NCBI GenBank assembly: GCA_913055735.1
Contig: CAJXKD010000001.1
Span: 1,453,099 to 1,517,098 of the forward strand
DNA length: 64,000 nucleotides
Direction of reading: 5' to 3'
From: an uncultured Rhodospirillales bacterium
GTDB lineage: Bacteria > Pseudomonadota > Alphaproteobacteria > Rhodospirillales > UBA2165
The notes beneath the pieces are model-generated. The model made no database searches. It saw only the letters and a list, made by a program, of their open reading frames with translations, and had not been told where the DNA came from. The translations under genes and the position numbers were made by a program. Below, piece after piece: positions 26,020-37,601 of this stretch (positions are counted from its first letter, which is position 1; each line of letters begins with the position of its first letter).

Positions 26020-28017
26020 TTAAATTCTCTGCTTCGTGATGTCGAATGCCTCGGGCGTTTCCCCCGCCAGGTATTTGTTCCACATGACGTCGTAAGCGGC
26101 TTCCAGCTCCGCCACATGCTGGTCGTAATCGAGCATCCGTTCCCGCATGAGCTCCCGCAAGCCACGACGCAACGCGGCACGGCGTTTATCGTCCCGGGCC
26201 AAGTTAACGGCGGCATCGACGTAGCCATCGCCATCCCGCGCGATGAGATCGGGGAGGTCCAGCTTGGTCAGATAGTTCAATCCCTGGCGGCCCATAAAGG
26301 TGTCGCCCGCCAATGTCACCACCGGCACGCCCATCCACAGCGCATCGCAACTCGTGGTGCCGCCGTTGCAGGGAAAGGTGTCGAGGGCGATGTCGACGTG
26401 ATTGTAGGCAGCGAGATGATCGGCGCGCCCCGGGATGTGCGCTAGGAAATCAACACGATCGCGAGGGATTCCGTGGCCGGCCATTCGGTTGGCGAGCGAT
26501 TGCCAATCCGCGGGATCGTCGGAAGCGTTGATGTTCTTGATCAGCAACCGTGCGCCGGGGACATTGGCGAGGATCCGCCCCCACAACACCATGATATCGG
26601 GCGTGATCTTGGCGATATTATTGAATGTCCCAAAGGTAATATGTCCGGCGGTTTCGGCCGGTGGTGGGCTCACGTCGGGGCAATTATCGGGCGGCAGGTA
26701 GCAATTGCGGTTCGTGACCTTGACCAGCTTCTCGACGTAAAACGCGTCCATCGTGCTACCGGGATCGGTCAAATCCTCGGTAATCATGTAGTCGATGGCG
26801 GCAATGCCGGTGGTCGACACGAGGTTGTGGTAACACACCTGAACCGGCGCCGGTTTGTAGGCTAAGGCCAACCGGTGACGGGCGCGGTAGGATGACACCA
26901 GCGCCAGGATATCGACGCCGTCGGAATGGATTTGCCCCGCGATGTCGGCGGGGTTGAGGTTGCCGACATCGCGCCACATGCCGGCGAATTGCCGCAGCCG
27001 CTCGGTGGTCGCATCGCTGTCCCGGTTGCCCGCGTAAACGACCGTGTCGAATCTGGATGGATTATGGCGGCTGATGACCGGCTCGAAAAAGTAAGACGTC
27101 ACGTGCGTTCCGAACTCATAAGACAGGTAACCGATTTTGAGTTTCTTGGGGCGGTGTGACGGACGCGCATGTGAAAACACGGCCGTCGATGCGGCGACCT
27201 TTCGGCCCCAATCGCGGTTCGCTTCGAACAATTGCTGTGCGGTGACCTTGGGATGAAATGCCAGATAAAAAAGATAGCTCGAGTAGACGGCCTCGTTGAA
27301 CGGCGCGAGGTTATGGGACCGATGAAAGCTTTCCATGGCACCGACGATATCGGCCTGCTCGATTTTGCAGTTGCCGAGCAAGGCGTGGGCCTGGGAAAAA
27401 CCAGGCTCGGCATTTACGGCCCGCTGTAAGTACCGCTGGGCACGGCTGTAGTGGCGCAGATCGAAATGATTTGTGCCGAGAGCCGTGAGAAGTTCGGCGT
27501 CGTTCCCATAGCGATCGACAAGCTTTTCCAACTGATCGGCGGCCTTTTCCAGGTGTCCCTGTGCGCGCAGGAGGAAAGCCTCGACCAGTGTGATCCGGTC
27601 CGGGTCGCCGTTCGTGGCGCGGGCCGTATCCAGACATTCGATGGCGCTGTCGACGTCGCCGGCGGCCACGTGCAGCCGCGCCAGTTGAATCCAGTTGTCG
27701 CCGTTTCGCGGCTCAAGTTCCAGTGCGCGTGAAATCGCCGCTATGGCCGCTTCTCGATCGCGCGCTGCCCATTTCGCGGCCGACAACGTCGCCAGCGCTT
27801 CGGGAAAGTGAGGTTGCCGGTCGAGCGCCCGTTCGACCAATTTGACGGCGGTCGGATGATCGCCGCGATCGAGAGCAATCGCTCCCAAAAGATGCAGCGC
27901 ATTGGGCTCGCTCGGATCGCGGTCGAGCACGCTCCGGTAAAGGACCGAGGCATCGTCGAGGCGTCCCGCCGTGTGGTGGGCGAGCGCCTGGTTGAGGATT
28001 TCCGGTGTATTGGTCAT
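26020..28017 (-). CDS. TPR-repeat protein fused to a GT41 (O-GlcNAc-transferase/SPINDLY-like) glycosyltransferase domain
   Basis: 665 aa. About 250 aa of TPR repeats are followed by ITFGTFNNIAKITP...LDTFPCNGGTTSCDALWMGVPVVT (GT41 C-terminal lobe). Confidence 0.8.
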   Translation of the reverse strand: MTNTPEILNQALAHHTAGRLDDASVLYRSVLDRDPSEPNALHLLGAIALDRGDHPTAVKLVERALDRQPHFPEALATLSAAKWAARDREAAIAAISRALELEPRNGDNWIQLARLHVAAGDVDSAIECLDTARATNGDPDRITLVEAFLLRAQGHLEKAADQLEKLVDRYGNDAELLTALGTNHFDLRHYSRAQRYLQRAVNAEPGFSQAHALLGNCKIEQADIVGAMESFHRSHNLAPFNEAVYSSYLFYLAFHPKVTAQQLFEANRDWGRKVAASTAVFSHARPSHRPKKLKIGYLSYEFGTHVTSYFFEPVISRHNPSRFDTVVYAGNRDSDATTERLRQFAGMWRDVGNLNPADIAGQIHSDGVDILALVSSYRARHRLALAYKPAPVQVCYHNLVSTTGIAAIDYMITEDLTDPGSTMDAFYVEKLVKVTNRNCYLPPDNCPDVSPPPAETAGHITFGTFNNIAKITPDIMVLWGRILANVPGARLLIKNINASDDPADWQSLANRMAGHGIPRDRVDFLAHIPGRADHLAAYNHVDIALDTFPCNGGTTSCDALWMGVPVVTLAGDTFMGRQGLNYLTKLDLPDLIARDGDGYVDAAVNLARDDKRRAALRRGLRELMRERMLDYDQHVAELEAAYDVMWNKYLAGETPEAFDITKQRI

Positions 28018-29831: not shown

Positions 29832-29864
29832 TTGACATATATTCTAATTTGCATATATTTGCAA
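29832..29864. promoter_or_regulatory. face-to-face overlapping divergent promoters and probable operator (blh-like gene <-> arsR-ygaP-sulP)
   Basis: Plus strand: TTGACA(29832-37)-N16-TATATT(29854-59). Minus strand: TTGCAA(29864-59)-N17-TATATG(29841-36). CATATATT occurs twice, 16 bp apart. Confidence 0.4.
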
Positions 29865-29866
29865 GT

Positions 29867-30214
29867 ATGATTATTGATCGTATGGAGCGGACGGCCGATC
29901 AGATTAGCGACCTGATGAAAGTCCTTTCTAATCAGACGCGGCTCCTGATTTTGTGCCAATTGGTGGACGGTGAAAAGTCTGTCGGCGAATTGGCGCATCT
30001 TCTGAATGCCCGCGAACAGGCGGTATCGCAACAGTTGGCCTTGCTGCGCAAGGACGGCTTGGTGCGGGGCCGGCGGCAGGGACAGGTGGTGTTCTATTCC
30101 GTCGCCCGCGACGACGTCGCGCCTTTAATGAATTTTCTTCACGACACATATTGTATGGTGCCCCCACATTCCTTGCAGGCGCCTTCCCCAAAGGAGAATA
30201 AACATGTCCGATAA
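29867..30214 (+). CDS. ArsR/SmtB-family regulator, two-Cys BigR/SqrR-like (copy 1)
   Basis: ORF 29849 (TTG)..30214 trimmed to ATG 29867 (MIIDRMERT...). It has a wHTH (SVGELAHLLNAREQAVSQQLALLRKDGLV). Cys30 (LILC) and Cys96 (TYC) are 66 residues apart. Confidence 0.85.
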   Translation: MIIDRMERTADQISDLMKVLSNQTRLLILCQLVDGEKSVGELAHLLNAREQAVSQQLALLRKDGLVRGRRQGQVVFYSVARDDVAPLMNFLHDTYCMVPPHSLQAPSPKENKHVR

Positions 30215-32517: not shown

Positions 32518-32606
32518 AAGGTCCGATTCCGGAATAGCCTTTGCTTGAAATAATTGGGTCGCTTGACCACTATGGCGGCGCGATAACAAATCACTGGGGA
32601 AAAACG

Positions 32607-33653
32607 ATGCTTGCCGACCGCATCGAAGGAAAATGGATCGATACCTTCGCTAAGGTATTCGAGCTTTGCAAAGTCGAAAAAGGCGAGGAAATCGCCATTT
32701 TATCGGAAACCCAATCCCGTCAATTGAATGTCCATCTGGCCGAACTCGCCCTATTGCGCCTGGGCGCACGGCCCTTCCATGTCATCGTGCCGACCCCGCC
32801 GCAAGCCGCGCCGGTGCCGGTGCGTTCCACCGGCGCGTCCGATGCGGTGCGTCAGTTGGGCCCGGTGGTGAAGGCTTTGGCCGCAAGTTCGATGGTTGTC
32901 GATCTTACGGTCGAGGGCATGCTGCATGCGCCCGAACTGCCCGCCATTATCGCCGATGATGCGCGGGTGCTGATGATTTCCAATGAACATCCCGAGGCAC
33001 TCGAACGTTTGCTGCCCGATCCCGCGTTGACCGAAAAGGTCAAAGCGGCGGTCAAGAAAATGCGCGGGGCCAAGCAGATGAAAGTCACGTCCACCGCGGG
33101 TACCGATCTCACCATCGGTATCGAGGGCGCGCCCAGCGCCGGGGTGTGGGGCTATTGCGACCGGCCCAAAACGGTGGCCCATTGGCCGGGCGGCATCGTC
33201 GTCGCTTTCCCGCCCGCCCACTCGGTCAACGGCACGCTGGTGCTCGATGCGGGTGACATCAACCTCACCTTCAAGCGCTACCTGCAGGACCCGGTGCGGC
33301 TGACCATCGAGGACGATTTCGTCACCGACATCGCAGGCGAGGGTACCGACGCCGAATTGTTCCGCCGCTATTGGGCGGCGTGGGGCGACAAAGAAGCCTA
33401 CGGCGTGTCGCATGTCGGCTGGGGCCTCAATCCGGCGGCCCGCTACGAAGCCATGGCCATGTACGATCAGCGCGATTTCAACGGTACCGAACTGCGTGCC
33501 TTTGCCGGCAATTTCCTCTATTCGACGGGCGCCAACGAGTTCGCCAAGCGTCACACGTTGGGCCATTTCGATCTGCCGGTGCGGGGGTGTACGGTTACCC
33601 TTGACGGCGAGGCGGTGGTGGAGAACGGCGATCTCGTCGACGGCAGCGAATGA
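32607..33653 (+). CDS. NicX-like (M29-fold) 2,5-dihydroxypyridine-type ring-cleavage dioxygenase
   Basis: ORF 32541..33653 trimmed to ATG 32607. The blocks GTLVLDAGDINLTFKRY, VSHVGWGLNP, FAGNFLYSTGAN and GHFDLPVRGC parallel the NicX His/Ser/His/Asp iron site, as recalled from P. putida NicX. Confidence 0.75.
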   Translation: MLADRIEGKWIDTFAKVFELCKVEKGEEIAILSETQSRQLNVHLAELALLRLGARPFHVIVPTPPQAAPVPVRSTGASDAVRQLGPVVKALAASSMVVDLTVEGMLHAPELPAIIADDARVLMISNEHPEALERLLPDPALTEKVKAAVKKMRGAKQMKVTSTAGTDLTIGIEGAPSAGVWGYCDRPKTVAHWPGGIVVAFPPAHSVNGTLVLDAGDINLTFKRYLQDPVRLTIEDDFVTDIAGEGTDAELFRRYWAAWGDKEAYGVSHVGWGLNPAARYEAMAMYDQRDFNGTELRAFAGNFLYSTGANEFAKRHTLGHFDLPVRGCTVTLDGEAVVENGDLVDGSE

Positions 33654-34426
33654 GTTTTCCCATCACATATATCGAGGCCGGCAGCGGCCCGGCAGTGATT
33701 TTCCTGCATGGCATCGGCGGCGACGCGGAGGCTTTCTCAAAGCAGGTGGATTACTTCGCCCGCGAACATCGGGCCATTGCCTGGAACATGCCCGGCTATC
33801 GCGGCTCCGACCTGCTCGATCCCATGACTTTCCCCGGGCTTGCGAAGGCGCTGCTGTCGCTGATGGATCATCTCGGCATCGACAAGGCCCATGTGGTCGG
33901 CCATTCCATCGGCGGCATGATCGCCCTCGAGTTCGCCGCGACCTATCCCGACCGGGTGCTCAGCGTCGTGCTTGCGCAGACCAGCCCCGCCTTCGGCCGC
34001 CCCGACGGCGACTTCCAGAAACAGTTCATTGCCGACCGGCTCGGGCCCCTCGACGCGGGCCAGACCATGGCCGAGATCGCCGACGAGGTGATCGCCACTT
34101 TTTTCGGCCCCAACGCGGCGCCCGCCGATATCGAAGTGGCGCGCAAGGCGATGGCCGCGGTGCCGGAGGCAACCTATCGCGCGGCCATGCATTGCCTGGT
34201 CGCCTTTGATCGGCGTGATGCCTTGTCGAACCTATCGGTGCCCACGCTCGTGCTCGCCGGCGAAAAGGACAGCAACGCCCCCGCGCCGATGATGGAGCGC
34301 ATGGCGGGCAAGATCCCCGGCGCCGAATACGCCTGCATGGCTGGGGCCGGCCATCTCGCCAATCTTGAATGTCCCGAGGCGTTCAACGACGCCATCGGCA
34401 GTTTCATAAACAAACTCAAAAACTGA
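33650..34426 (+). CDS. alpha/beta-fold hydrolase (NicD-like deformylase candidate)
   Basis: 258 aa with VIFLHGIGG, nucleophile elbow GHSIGG, and C-terminal AGHLANLE. An ATGA start/stop overlap joins it to the upstream gene. Confidence 0.8.
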   Translation: MSFPITYIEAGSGPAVIFLHGIGGDAEAFSKQVDYFAREHRAIAWNMPGYRGSDLLDPMTFPGLAKALLSLMDHLGIDKAHVVGHSIGGMIALEFAATYPDRVLSVVLAQTSPAFGRPDGDFQKQFIADRLGPLDAGQTMAEIADEVIATFFGPNAAPADIEVARKAMAAVPEATYRAAMHCLVAFDRRDALSNLSVPTLVLAGEKDSNAPAPMMERMAGKIPGAEYACMAGAGHLANLECPEAFNDAIGSFINKLKN

Positions 34427-34445: not shown

Positions 34446-35702
34446 ATGGCGCGCGCATCCCTTCCCGTCGATCCCCCCATGTACGACCCGAAGTCGTTCG
34501 GCCTGACCAAGAAACAGGCCCAACTGACGGCCAAGGCCCGCAAGCTGGGCGCCGAGAAATTCGCGCCGCGTGCCGACAAGTGGGATCGTGAAGCCATCTT
34601 TCCCATGGAGAACTACAAGGATCTGCACAAAGCAGGCTTTCTCGGCATTTGTGTGCCGGAGAAGCATGGCGGTATCGGCGCGGATTACATGACCTATGCG
34701 CTGACGGCGGCGGAAATCGGCCGCTATTGCGGCACCACCTCGCTTACTTGGAACATGCACGTCAGTTCGTGTTTGTGGACCGGCGATCTCGCCGACGATC
34801 TCAAGATGACGGCGGCGCAACGCAAATCACACAACCGCCGCCGCGCCATTCACTACAAGCGCATCGTCGAGGACGGGGCCATTTACGCGCAGCCCTTTTC
34901 CGAAGGCGGTGCCGCGGCGGCCGGCGCCGCGCCGTTCGGCACCACGGCGACAAAGACCAAAGGCGGCTGGCTGATCAACGGCAAGAAGATTTTCGCTTCC
35001 CTCGCCGGGTCGGCGGACTATTACGGCGTGTTGTGCACGGAGAAGAAACCCAACCTGTCGCGCCGCGACACCATGTATGTGGCGGTGCCCGGCGATGCGG
35101 AGGGCGTGTCGGTCGTCGGCGATTGGGATCCGCTGGGTATGCGCGGCACCGTGTCGCGTAACCTGCTGTTTGACAATGTGTTCGTTCCCGATGATGCGGC
35201 GCTGATGCCCAAGGGCGTTTATTTCCTCGCCGCCACCCGCTGGCCGCACATGTTCCTCACGCTGACACCCACCTATATGGGTATCGCTCAGGCGGCCTAT
35301 GATTTCACGGTGAAGTATCTGCGCGGCGAAGCGCCGAACACGCCGCCCGTAAAACGTCGCATGTATCCGACCAAGCAGCACGCGATCGCCGAGATGCACA
35401 TGAAGCTGGAGCAGACCAAGGCGATTTGGTTCCAGGCCATCCGCGAGGCTGGCCCCAACCCGACCAAGGAACAGATATTGCGTGCCTACACGGCGCAATA
35501 TTCGGCGATGGAGAATGCCAACGAGCTTTGCCGCCTGGCCATCCGCACCTGCGGTGGGCAGTCGATGCTCAAGAGCCTGCCGCTGGAGCGTCTTTACCGC
35601 GATAGCCGTTGCGGTTCACTGATGTTGCCGTGGACTGCGGAAATCTGCGTCGACCGGCTGGGCCGCGAGGCGCTCTACAATCCGGGCGAAAGCGACGAAT
35701 GA
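34446..35702 (+). CDS. acyl-CoA-dehydrogenase-fold flavoprotein, non-canonical (MCAD-type catalytic Glu not evident)
   Basis: 418 aa with the ACAD N/M/C domain pattern (FLGICVPEKHGGIG..., ...GGQSMLKSLPLERLYRD...). The position of the usual YEGT motif reads LMLPWT. Confidence 0.8.
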   Translation: MARASLPVDPPMYDPKSFGLTKKQAQLTAKARKLGAEKFAPRADKWDREAIFPMENYKDLHKAGFLGICVPEKHGGIGADYMTYALTAAEIGRYCGTTSLTWNMHVSSCLWTGDLADDLKMTAAQRKSHNRRRAIHYKRIVEDGAIYAQPFSEGGAAAAGAAPFGTTATKTKGGWLINGKKIFASLAGSADYYGVLCTEKKPNLSRRDTMYVAVPGDAEGVSVVGDWDPLGMRGTVSRNLLFDNVFVPDDAALMPKGVYFLAATRWPHMFLTLTPTYMGIAQAAYDFTVKYLRGEAPNTPPVKRRMYPTKQHAIAEMHMKLEQTKAIWFQAIREAGPNPTKEQILRAYTAQYSAMENANELCRLAIRTCGGQSMLKSLPLERLYRDSRCGSLMLPWTAEICVDRLGREALYNPGESDE

Positions 35703-37234
35703 CCGATATCTCGCACTGGCTGAAAACGCATGCGGCCTTCGATCCGGAAAAGGTCGCACTGCGTCATGCCGGCGGCGAGGAAACCTACGCGCAGTTTGCT
35801 GATCAGGTTCGATGTCATGCGGCCATGCTGCAGCACGGGCTCGGCATCGGGCGCGGCGATCGTATTGCCTATCTCGGCCCAAATACCGCCGACTTCCTGT
35901 TTCTGTTTTTCGCCGCTGCACGCCTCGGCGCGATGTTTCTACCGCTCAATTGGCGCCTGGCACCGGGGGAACATGCCTATATCATCGCCGATGCGTCACC
36001 CAAGGCGGTGTTCTGCGATGCCAGTTTCATCGAGCATACGGACACTTTTCGGGGCCGGTATCCGACGATCGCCTTTGTCGATTGCAACGGCGGGACCGAC
36101 GGATGGAACTCTTTACGCGGCCTGCTCGATGACACGTCTGGCCAGGACGTGCCCCGATTGGGCGATCTCGCCGATCCCCTGTTGCTGGTCTATACATCAG
36201 GCACTACAGGACGCCCCAAAGGCGCGGTCCTCACCCAAAATGCGGTGCAGGTCAACGCGCTCAATAGCCTCCATATGCACGATCTGCGCAGCGACGACCG
36301 CATCCTCACGATGATCCCGTTGTTTCATGTGGGCGGACTTAATATTCACACGACACCCGCCTTCTATGCCGGCGCAACGGTGACCTTGCATGAACGGTTC
36401 GATCCCGGGATGGCGCTCAAGACTATCGAAGAAGAAAAAATTACCCTCACCGTTATGGTGCCGGCCGTCATTCAGGCGGCGATGAAACACCCAAAATGGG
36501 ACGCGGCCAATCTGTCGTCGTTGCGGATGCTGACCACCGGCTCGTCAATCGTGCCCTTGCCGCTGATCCAGGCGTTCCATGACCTTGGTGTTCCCGTGGT
36601 ACAGGTCTATGGCGCGACGGAAACAGCGCCCGTGGCGATATACCAGCGGGCCGCGGATGGGTTCCGCAAGCCCAGTTCGACCGGGAAGGCAGCGCTTCAC
36701 TGCGACGTACGGGTCGTAGACGACAACGGCCACGATGTGGCGCCCGGCGTATCGGGCGAGATCTGGGTGCGGGGCGGCAATATCCTGCGCGAATACTGGA
36801 ATAATCCCGACGCGACGGCGGCAGCCTTGACCGATGGTTGGTTCCATACCGGTGACGTCGGTTATCTGGATGAGGAAGGCGACTATTTCATCAATGACCG
36901 CAAGAAAGACGTGATTATCTCGGGCGGTGAAAACATTTATCCAGCCGAGGTGGAAGCGGTGCTACACGAAATGACGGAAATTGCCGATGCGGCGGTTGTC
37001 GGCCGAGCCGATGACCGGTGGGGAGAAGTACCAATTGCTGTCGTCGAAGCAAAGGAAGGTGCGCAGATCGACGTGGCCGCGATCCTCGGGCGTTTCGATG
37101 GTGTGCTGGCGCGCTTCAAGCATCCCAAGGACATCATCGTCGTAGACGCACTGCCGCGGAATGCCATGGGCAAGGTGCTGAAATACGAAGTGCGGGGCCT
37201 GGCGGTGAAAAGCCCGGATTACGCTGGGCAATAG
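35699..37234 (+). CDS. AMP-forming acyl-CoA ligase (ANL superfamily)
   Basis: ORF 35609..37234 trimmed to ATG 35699 (ATGA overlap with the ACAD stop). Motifs LLVYTSGTTGRPKG, YGATE, GWFHTGD and ISGGENIYPAEVE are present. Confidence 0.9.
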   Translation: MTDISHWLKTHAAFDPEKVALRHAGGEETYAQFADQVRCHAAMLQHGLGIGRGDRIAYLGPNTADFLFLFFAAARLGAMFLPLNWRLAPGEHAYIIADASPKAVFCDASFIEHTDTFRGRYPTIAFVDCNGGTDGWNSLRGLLDDTSGQDVPRLGDLADPLLLVYTSGTTGRPKGAVLTQNAVQVNALNSLHMHDLRSDDRILTMIPLFHVGGLNIHTTPAFYAGATVTLHERFDPGMALKTIEEEKITLTVMVPAVIQAAMKHPKWDAANLSSLRMLTTGSSIVPLPLIQAFHDLGVPVVQVYGATETAPVAIYQRAADGFRKPSSTGKAALHCDVRVVDDNGHDVAPGVSGEIWVRGGNILREYWNNPDATAAALTDGWFHTGDVGYLDEEGDYFINDRKKDVIISGGENIYPAEVEAVLHEMTEIADAAVVGRADDRWGEVPIAVVEAKEGAQIDVAAILGRFDGVLARFKHPKDIIVVDALPRNAMGKVLKYEVRGLAVKSPDYAGQ

Positions 37235-37515
37235 TTCTTGTGCAGAAAGCGTAAGAGCTTGGAGATCTTCTTTTTGGCCAGCGAATAATAAATGGTCTGC
37301 CCGTCGCGGCGGGTTTTGACCAAACCGTCCTTGCGCAGCAGAGCGAGCTGCTGGGACATGGCCTGTTCGCGAACGTCGAGCAACTTGGCCAATTCGCCGA
37401 CGGAAGATTCCCCTTCGACAAGCCGGCATAGGATCAACAGCCGATTGCGGTTGGACAGAACCTTCATAAGGTCCGAAACCTCCTCAGCGGATTTTTGCAT
37501 GTCTTTTAGGTTCAT
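37219..37515 (-). CDS. ArsR/SmtB-family regulator, two-Cys BigR/SqrR-like (copy 2)
   Basis: ORF 37219..37551 starts at a TTG. I trimmed it to ATG 37515 (MNLKDMQKS...), which aligns residue-for-residue with copy 1, including Cys30 (LILC) and Cys96 (NYC). Confidence 0.8.
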   Translation of the reverse strand: MNLKDMQKSAEEVSDLMKVLSNRNRLLILCRLVEGESSVGELAKLLDVREQAMSQQLALLRKDGLVKTRRDGQTIYYSLAKKKISKLLRFLHKNYCPA

Positions 37516-37601
37516 ATTTGCGAACCTATGATGATATCTATTTTCCGTCAAGCCGGATTGGTTGCGAAGCTCAGATTTTCAGGCCTCCGTTGAAAAAATC
37601 C

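Follow-up and report, generated by a model that had tools for sequence, protein, structure and literature searches.

Introduction

An acyl-coenzyme A (CoA) dehydrogenase (ACAD) fold without the catalytic glutamate is not surprising in itself, and group D flavin monooxygenases of this kind are well known. Here we describe such a protein, P0001, encoded on the forward strand at positions 34446-35702 of the window, that is, of the whole 64,000-nucleotide stretch of DNA analyzed from an uncultured Rhodospirillales bacterium (contig CAJXKD010000001.1, positions 1,453,099 to 1,517,098). Although annotated as an acyl-CoA dehydrogenase, P0001 lacks a glutamate at both sites where dehydrogenases carry their catalytic base. 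What is new is the fixed partnership of its family with a NicX-type dioxygenase and the coupling to an aroyl-CoA pathway. We found no paper that describes a module of NicX-type dioxygenase, ACAD-fold protein and CoA ligase, or its link to aroyl-CoA metabolism.

The closest described enzymes are XiaF, IacA, IdoA and BEC, which share with P0001 an ACAD fold of about 390-420 residues and the lack of a catalytic glutamate, and whose flavin reductase partner is encoded either adjacent or unlinked (PMC5481743; PMC4577076). XiaF works with a free flavin reductase to hydroxylate C3 of indole, and the same source counts BEC of Cupriavidus necator as an ACAD-fold group D monooxygenase that forms indigo (PMC5481743). 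A class of ACAD-like 'indigo-producing' enzymes of 387-416 residues has also been described (PMC4577076). P0001 is likened to these enzymes by fold and description, not by sequence, and differs from them in belonging to a fixed operon with a NicX-like gene, a hydrolase gene and a CoA ligase gene, a type of operon of which we found no report. A further ACAD-like flavoenzyme, TdaE, needs no separate reductase to dehydrogenate a CoA ester and oxygenate it afterwards (PMC8283759). Its architecture, like that of P0001, is closer to the classical ACADs than that of typical group D enzymes. TdaE uses a paa-derived CoA ester, however, whereas the present locus has no tda or paa context and yielded no close sequence match to TdaE.

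Two sets of catabolic pathways resemble the surroundings of P0001. In the nicX-nicD nicotinate (maleamate) pathway of P. putida, as here, a NicX homologue is accompanied by a translationally coupled alpha/beta hydrolase, and a flavin hydroxylase (NicC) acts before ring cleavage (PMC7910607). The differences are that the hydroxylase candidate here has the ACAD fold and is not of class A, nicF and nicE are missing, Glu177 of NicX is replaced in all 86 cassette copies, and a CoA ligase follows. The second set consists of CoA-dependent routes for aryl acids, namely sdgABCD/cehGHI (salicylyl-CoA) and the 2-aminobenzoyl-CoA pathway of Azoarcus. These routes are not known to include a NicX-like enzyme or a Glu-less ACAD-fold protein. 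The 2-aminobenzoyl-CoA pathway is cited in PMC6221969, where its cluster is given a role in indole degradation by Cupriavidus. In common with these routes, the genomes studied here combine an aryl-CoA ligase with a FAD_binding_3+OYE 5-hydroxylase/oxidoreductase, an enoyl-CoA hydratase, a short-chain dehydrogenase/reductase (SDR) and an ACAD.

P0001 lacks both types of catalytic glutamate

Dehydrogenases of the ACAD family place their catalytic base at one of two sites, either the MCAD Glu376-type glutamate in a Y-E-G motif or the alternative glutamate on helix G, as in IVD (Glu254) and the LCAD type. The corresponding features of the P0001 gene are the following.

34446-35702, forward strand: ACAD-fold flavoprotein without catalytic glutamate (P0001), an open reading frame (ORF) of 418 amino acids
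35247..35255, forward strand: codons of His268-Met269-Phe270 at the start of helix G (alignment with paralogues L089 and L090; helix 267-292 in the model)
35625..35630, forward strand: codons of Leu394-Pro395 at the MCAD-type glutamate site (MAFFT alignment with paralogues L088 and L091; invariant in 121 family members)

The glutamate columns were fixed by a MAFFT L-INS-i alignment with ACAD paralogues of the same genome as positive controls; the assembly contains 12 Acyl-CoA_dh_1 matches. Two of these paralogues (L088, L091) carry the MCAD-type Y-E-G, and two others (L089, L090) have no Y-E-G and carry the helix-G glutamate instead ('MNAER'). Beneath the Y-E-G of the former, P0001 has Leu394-Pro395-Trp396; an ungapped, HMMER-style register puts Leu394 beneath the glutamate, and neither Leu394 nor Pro395 is acidic. 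In the helix-G column P0001 has Phe270. An earlier note on this DNA, made from the letters alone, had placed Leu-Pro-Trp at the expected Y-E-G and concluded that the MCAD-type base is missing. This hand alignment was correct, and a glutamate at the IVD/LCAD-type position, which the note had held out as the possible refutation, was looked for, with Phe270 found in its place.

Both sites, Leu394/Pro395 and Phe270, are invariant across the 121 homologues with 70% identity or more, and Y-E-G-T is absent from every full-length protein in the set of the 150 best 50%-cluster representatives. The missing glutamate is a family trait and neither chance nor a sequencing error. The sole acidic residue nearby, Glu399, aligns with the non-catalytic glutamate of Y-E-G-T-x-E. 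Furthermore, the canonical flavin and substrate motifs are altered, with W-I-[ST]-N replaced by I-F-A-S-L and S-E-P-x-x-G-S-D by S-E-G-G-A-A-A-A. PROSITE-like ACAD signatures match none of the 121 members, which is a weak test given that four of six controls matched one of the two patterns and the remaining two matched neither. His268, also invariant, is a candidate active-site residue.

Fold and family placement

P0001 is a single-copy gene in its genome, and its ATG follows an AGGAGA Shine-Dalgarno sequence about 8 nt upstream. The protein has the three-domain ACAD fold, as seen both in its Pfam matches (Acyl-CoA_dh_N 1.6e-20, Acyl-CoA_dh_M 9.9e-15, Acyl-CoA_dh_1 3e-11, Acyl-CoA_dh_2 1.2e-9) and in an AlphaFold2 model computed with 57 homologues as input (pLDDT 94.2, pTM 0.93). 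The model superposes on the dehydrogenases iBD (1rx0), SCAD (2vig), MCAD (3mdd) and IVD (1ivh) with Z 44-45.5, on 5z8t with Z 43.9 and on the desulfinase AcdDPN7 with Z 42.3. In the Foldseek and VIA-align comparisons, dehydrogenases, oxygenases and desulfinase all lie at Z 40-45, and the fold gives no functional separation. The structural check suggested in the earlier note thus returned a confident ACAD fold, which cannot tell a dehydrogenase from an oxygenase or desulfinase; its second check, Acyl-CoA_dh_1 against Acyl-CoA_dh_2, gave matches to both models.

No NCBIfam equivalog is reached by P0001, all 18 matches lying far under their cut-offs (best AcrC, 142.7 versus 640 bits). The model of 3-sulfinopropionyl-CoA desulfinase (NF042439) gives 108.5 bits against a cut-off of 600, SfnB 99.1 against 430.9, DszC 66.6 against 850, HsaA 59 against 450 and HpaH-C2 44.3 against 650. 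P0001 is accordingly a member of neither the DszC/SfnB nor the AcdDPN7 family. The classical ACADs share the three-domain fold and include the best-scoring characterized sequences (SCAD, E 1e-31), but P0001 differs from them in lacking the glutamate at either site, in its altered motifs and in falling below every NCBIfam ACAD cut-off.

The nearest solved sequence relative is PDB 5z8t/5gj7 (E 2e-36; about 26-27% identity in structural alignments), deposited as 'flavin-containing monooxygenase' (5z8t) and as 'acyl-CoA dehydrogenase type 2 domain protein' (5gj7). It shares with P0001 a Glu-less R-D-x-R-x-G...P motif and a Pro-rich insertion after helix G, but is only a distant relative. No paper on either entry was found in the literature searched by entry code. 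The sequence of AcdDPN7 (PDB 5af7) matches P0001 with E 2.3e-14.

A search of 1.84 billion cluster representatives delineated a tight family of at least 62% identity, followed by a gap down to 42-44%. The family is large and spans Roseibium, Stappia, Rhodobacteraceae, Bradyrhizobium and Comamonadaceae; a homologue search started from a representative at 64% identity (P0123) returned Comamonadaceae only. One member, P0021, which is 76% identical to P0001, bears the source name 'BEC protein', and BEC is also an automatic Atlas cluster name. IifC was considered as an analogue and dropped, being styrene-monooxygenase-like (PMC4577076) and not of the ACAD fold.

A conserved cassette with a NicX-like dioxygenase

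The P0001 gene is the third of four, in the order NicX-like gene, alpha/beta hydrolase, ACAD-fold gene and CoA ligase. The other elements of this cassette are as follows.

32607..33653, forward strand: NicX-like non-haem Fe(II) ring-cleavage dioxygenase (PDB 7cn3 NicX, E 5.5e-60)
33650..34426, forward strand: alpha/beta-fold hydrolase of 258 amino acids (Pfam Abhydrolase_1/6), with a 4-nt overlap with the NicX-like gene
35699..37234, forward strand: AMP-forming acyl/aryl-CoA ligase of 511 amino acids (Pfam AMP-binding; PDB 8wev feruloyl-CoA synthetase, E 3e-103)
37212..37229, forward strand: hairpin of terminator type where the ligase gene ends, probably also where the operon stops, from a consensus scan alone

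The NicX-like ORF is open from a TTG at 32541, and its likely start is the ATG at 32607, which gives a protein of 348 amino acids as in the homologues. The ligase ATG overlaps the P0001 stop codon as ATGA, resulting in translational coupling. The hydrolase has PcaD as its top NCBIfam match (161.6 bits, under the cut-off of 255.85), esterases and an enol-lactonase as its top PDB matches, and weak Pfam Thioesterase matches; we propose for it a role as N-formyl (NicD-like) or ester hydrolase.

To assess conservation of the cassette, flanking genes were scored by tblastn with reference proteins; unsupervised clustering of flanking ORFs was dropped owing to spurious antisense ORFs in high-GC genomes, and the contigs of two homologues (P0131, P0132) are too short for gene context. 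Among 85 main-clade loci, 76 have the hydrolase upstream and 83 have the ligase downstream of the ACAD-fold gene, and 71 have a NicX homologue within 7 kb. Among 400 evenly sampled Alphaproteobacteria, the cassette gene occurs in 20 genomes from 17 genera, with the NicX-like gene nearly always directly upstream. The cassette is likewise present in most of the Bradyrhizobium genomes returned and in Comamonadaceae.

The trio of NicX-like, hydrolase and ACAD-fold genes is retained from 100% down to 45% identity. At two loci it stands without a ligase (L123, L124), and at three others a glutamine-synthetase-like gene takes the place of the ligase (L104, L105, L127). Because the trio outlasts both loss and replacement of the ligase, the ACAD-fold step belongs with the ring-cleavage enzyme rather than with CoA chemistry. 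The loci with the replacement form a sister clade of about 48% identity, located on Aminobacter and Ensifer plasmids and on the chromosome of one further genome (G258), in which the order is NicX-like gene, ACAD-fold gene, a hydrolase of 430 amino acids and the glutamine-synthetase-like gene (L104, Aminobacter pAA02; L105, Ensifer adhaerens p1; L127). Both annotated plasmid copies also include a flavin reductase, a TetR regulator and an APC permease. The Aminobacter module further adjoins genes for a cupin, a FAH-family protein and a C-N hydrolase. This organization suggests that the sister module acts on an amine rather than a carboxylate.

Individual loci depart from the common layout. A 59%-identical lone copy on a conjugative cyanobacterial plasmid (L109, Dolichospermum pDol_DET69_01) has no cassette partner and lies between XisH/XisI and large hypothetical genes, probably as a transferred fragment. 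At L002:5016-9251, what separates the NicX-like and ACAD-fold genes is not the hydrolase gene but a Uma2-family endonuclease gene and an unannotated ORF of 311 amino acids on the opposite strand. The Bradyrhizobium-type arrangement (51-52 of 106 loci; L067:12768-14852) continues after the ligase with Octopine_DH-like and 3-hydroxyacyl-CoA dehydrogenase genes, both absent from the window.

A flavin reductase gene beside some cassettes

Of 106 loci, 17 have a Flavin_Reduct (PF01613) gene adjoining the cassette, mostly at one fixed place, divergent from the operon, upstream of the NicX-like gene and beside a MarR gene. By chance, such adjacency would be expected in about 1%, as estimated from the three genes of this type in the 3.7-Mb genome studied here. 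A flavin reductase gene also stands beside a relative of 41% identity.

The NicX-like partner has an altered pocket

NicX binds 2,5-dihydroxypyridine via Leu104/His105, with Glu177 and His189 holding the N1-H and 2-oxo group, and coordinates iron through His265, Ser302, His318 and Asp320 (PMC7910607). All 86 cassette NicX-like proteins retain the four iron ligands together with His105 and His189. Position 177, in contrast, is Val in 72, Gly in 7, Ile in 4 and Thr in 3, and Glu in none. Because the iron ligands are invariant while Glu177 is always replaced, the partner is very probably active as a dioxygenase, on a substrate that is very probably not 2,5-dihydroxypyridine but a non-pyridone compound less polar at this edge.

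Connection to an aroyl-CoA pathway

Bradyrhizobium has the cassette back-to-back with genes for an SDR, an enoyl-CoA hydratase and a FAD_binding_3+OYE protein of 783 amino acids. The genome studied here encodes a 55%-identical copy of the latter at C1:2463780-2466212 (locus L133), about 1 Mb from the cassette, and this protein scores 1138.6 bits (cut-off 1078) against NF006101, 'bifunctional salicylyl-CoA 5-hydroxylase/oxidoreductase'. Its neighbors are a convergent canonical ACAD with Y-E-G-T, an enoyl-CoA hydratase (PRK08258), an SDR and TctA/TctC transporter genes; no CoA ligase gene lies within 9 kb of it. The locus also holds an ORF of 228 amino acids without a family match.

Within the sample of 400 Alphaproteobacteria, a full-length FAD_binding_3+OYE hydroxylase is encoded in 17 of the 20 cassette genomes and in 57 of the other 380 (odds ratio 32, Fisher p 5e-11, a significance that is overstated as relatives are not independent). 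Directly beside the cassette, the hydroxylase gene is found in 38 and the hydratase gene in 46 of the 106 loci, and five of these loci have a tryptophan 2,3-dioxygenase gene no more than 10 kb away. At L116 (G104:C151:1-13099), the most compact version of the module seen, all parts are colinear: reductase, then NicX-like, hydrolase, ACAD-fold, ligase, hydroxylase/OYE, SDR, enoyl-CoA hydratase and canonical ACAD. Because this cluster holds both proteins, the Glu-less protein is no stand-in for the ordinary ACAD of the pathway's beta-oxidation steps, a role that we considered and rejected.

Surroundings of the cassette in the window

Just upstream of the cassette lie genes for a cupin resembling cysteine dioxygenase (CDO), a persulfide-dioxygenase-like metallo-beta-lactamase (MBL)-fold protein and a SulP permease, and the window also contains a rhodanese-like gene. 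Across the 106 homologous loci, CDO-like, SulP and rhodanese-like genes adjoin the cassette in none and the MBL gene in one. Because of this near-absence, the sulfur neighbors are coincidental, and a desulfinase or other sulfur-linked reading of P0001 was ruled out on synteny. The earlier note had favored a sulfur or heterocycle setting, of which the heterocycle part stands, given the conserved NicX-like ring-cleavage partner, and the sulfur part falls.

A sulfide-responsive module stands on either side of the cassette, which, in contrast to most marine copies, lacks a MarR regulator of its own. Two ArsR/HTH_5-type regulators flank the region (29849-30214, forward strand; 37219-37551, reverse strand). 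Further upstream, at 26020-28017 on the reverse strand, the window encodes a protein of 665 amino acids that combines TPR repeats at the N-terminus with a Glyco_transf_41 domain (O-GlcNAc-transferase-like) at the C-terminus.

Proposed function and alternatives

Our tentative proposal, to which we give a little less than an even chance, is that P0001 serves as the oxygenase in a two-component flavin monooxygenase of the group D type with the ACAD fold, and as a partner of the NicX-like enzyme. A free NAD(P)H:flavin reductase, encoded adjacently in some genomes and unlinked in this one, would supply P0001 with reduced flavin, and P0001 would hydroxylate a heteroaromatic ring next to the ring nitrogen, yielding an enol substrate. 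The co-transcribed NicX-like Fe(II) dioxygenase would then cleave the enol ring, the alpha/beta hydrolase would strip off the N-formyl (or N-acyl) group, and the coupled ligase would convert the aryl acid to its CoA thioester. This thioester may feed a module of salicylyl/2-aminobenzoyl-CoA 5-hydroxylase-oxidoreductase, enoyl-CoA hydratase, SDR and canonical ACAD.

NicX breaks the bond that joins the enol carbon to the carbon beside the ring NH, so that a carboxylate and an N-formyl group arise. Applied to 3-hydroxyindole, the same chemistry would give N-formylanthranilate. The likeliest concrete route would thus lead from an indole-type substrate via 3-hydroxyindole (indoxyl), N-formylanthranilate and anthranilate to 2-aminobenzoyl-CoA; we regard this specific route as about half as probable as the oxygenase function itself. 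The proposal of an indole-indoxyl-N-formylanthranilate-anthranilate route dates from 1953, and a 'dihydroxyindole oxygenase' purified in 1968 had no gene assigned to it (cited in PMC6221969). That the ACAD-fold and NicX-like genes are the missing genes for the conversion of indole through indoxyl/dihydroxyindole and N-formylanthranilate to anthranilate, and that many Alpha- and Betaproteobacteria have them connected directly to the 2-aminobenzoyl-CoA pathway, is an idea that we consider unlikely, if far from negligible.

Several observations weigh against the oxygenase function or its indole version. No reductase gene lies within the window, and none adjoins the cassette in 89 of the 106 loci. 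SCAD (E 1e-31, Z about 45) is nearer to P0001 than the DszC/MsuC-type oxygenases (E about 1e-13), and the likeness to BEC (AAK38074) is one of names. The translational coupling of the ligase and its adjacency in most main-clade loci are compatible with a CoA-ester substrate. TRAP/ABC transporters beside some cassettes suggest an imported carboxylate, not free indole. The ligase is Fcs/FadD/MenE-like and not of the known 2-aminobenzoate-CoA ligase type, and since the hydroxylase scores as a 'salicylyl-CoA 5-hydroxylase/oxidoreductase', the aryl acid could be salicylate instead of anthranilate.

P0001 might instead be an ACAD-like oxidase or internal oxygenase acting on the CoA thioester made by the ligase, with TdaE as precedent. 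The ATGA overlap and the adjacency of the ligase in 83 of the 85 main-clade loci would suit such an enzyme, as would the absence of a reductase gene from most loci and a backbone and sequence closest to the classical ACADs, as reported for TdaE (PMC8283759). We nevertheless consider this unlikely, although it carries real weight. The trio survives without the ligase (L123, L124) or with a glutamine-synthetase-like gene instead, reductase adjacency is enriched and its position fixed, and P0001 offers no base for the initial dehydrogenation. Furthermore, no plasmid-borne tdaE-like match was found at E <= 1e-20, and no paa or tda genes lie nearby.

In a second alternative, an Sdg/Ceh-type route would run in reversed order: the ligase would form an aroyl-CoA, the unlinked hydroxylase would act at position 5, the hydrolase would serve as a thioesterase, and the NicX-like enzyme would replace gentisate dioxygenase on a para-diol, with the ACAD-fold protein as an accessory hydroxylase or in a side role. 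Although the strong co-occurrence with the NF006101 hydroxylase, the weak Thioesterase matches and the para-dihydroxy ring of the natural NicX substrate are in line with this scheme, we judge it quite unlikely. The hydroxylase always occurs with enoyl-CoA hydratase, SDR and canonical ACAD, which fits processing of a dearomatized product at the CoA level, not a thioesterase followed by a dioxygenase. The hydrophobic residue at NicX position 177 is unsuited to a carboxylated diol, and no role is left for the best-conserved partner of the NicX-like gene.

It is improbable that P0001 is a true alpha,beta-dehydrogenase with an unconventional base. Its complete ACAD fold would allow this, and the invariant His268 and Glu399 lie close to the required positions, His268 preceding the IVD-type column by two residues and Glu399 following the MCAD-type column by four to five. 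Glu399, however, falls in the non-catalytic glutamate column, the canonical flavin and substrate motifs are changed, no NCBIfam ACAD equivalog is reached, and a canonical ACAD coexists in the same clusters. Finally, a 3-sulfinopropionyl-CoA-type desulfinase tied to the upstream thiol dioxygenase and SulP permease, as the sulfur genes in the window, the Glu-less fold beside a CoA ligase and the AcdDPN7 superposition might suggest, is effectively refuted by synteny, the conserved partners being the NicX-like, hydrolase and ligase genes, and is opposed by the low NF042439 score and the weak 5af7 match.

The oxygenase function as partner of the NicX-like enzyme therefore remains the preferred one. 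The view of the earlier note that P0001 is not a plain dehydrogenase is borne out by Glu-less closest relatives, by a nearest structure deposited as a flavin-containing monooxygenase and by the reductase genes beside 17 loci. Of the two functions it had named, the group D monooxygenase type is the best reading, and the desulfinase did not survive.

Implications for the family

In databases, thousands of members of this family carry the name 'acyl-CoA dehydrogenase family protein' or 'AidB-like'. If they are hydroxylases, reconstructions of pathways in which they are assigned to beta-oxidation would be wrong. The four-gene module is common, being present in 20 of the 400 sampled Alphaproteobacteria. 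Were the indole route true, the cassette would supply the genes for a long-known, gene-less branch of indole/tryptophan turnover, one that is relevant to signaling between plants and rhizobia and between algae and bacteria. It would further mean that NicX-type enzymes open the indole ring at C2-C3 as well as the pyridine ring.

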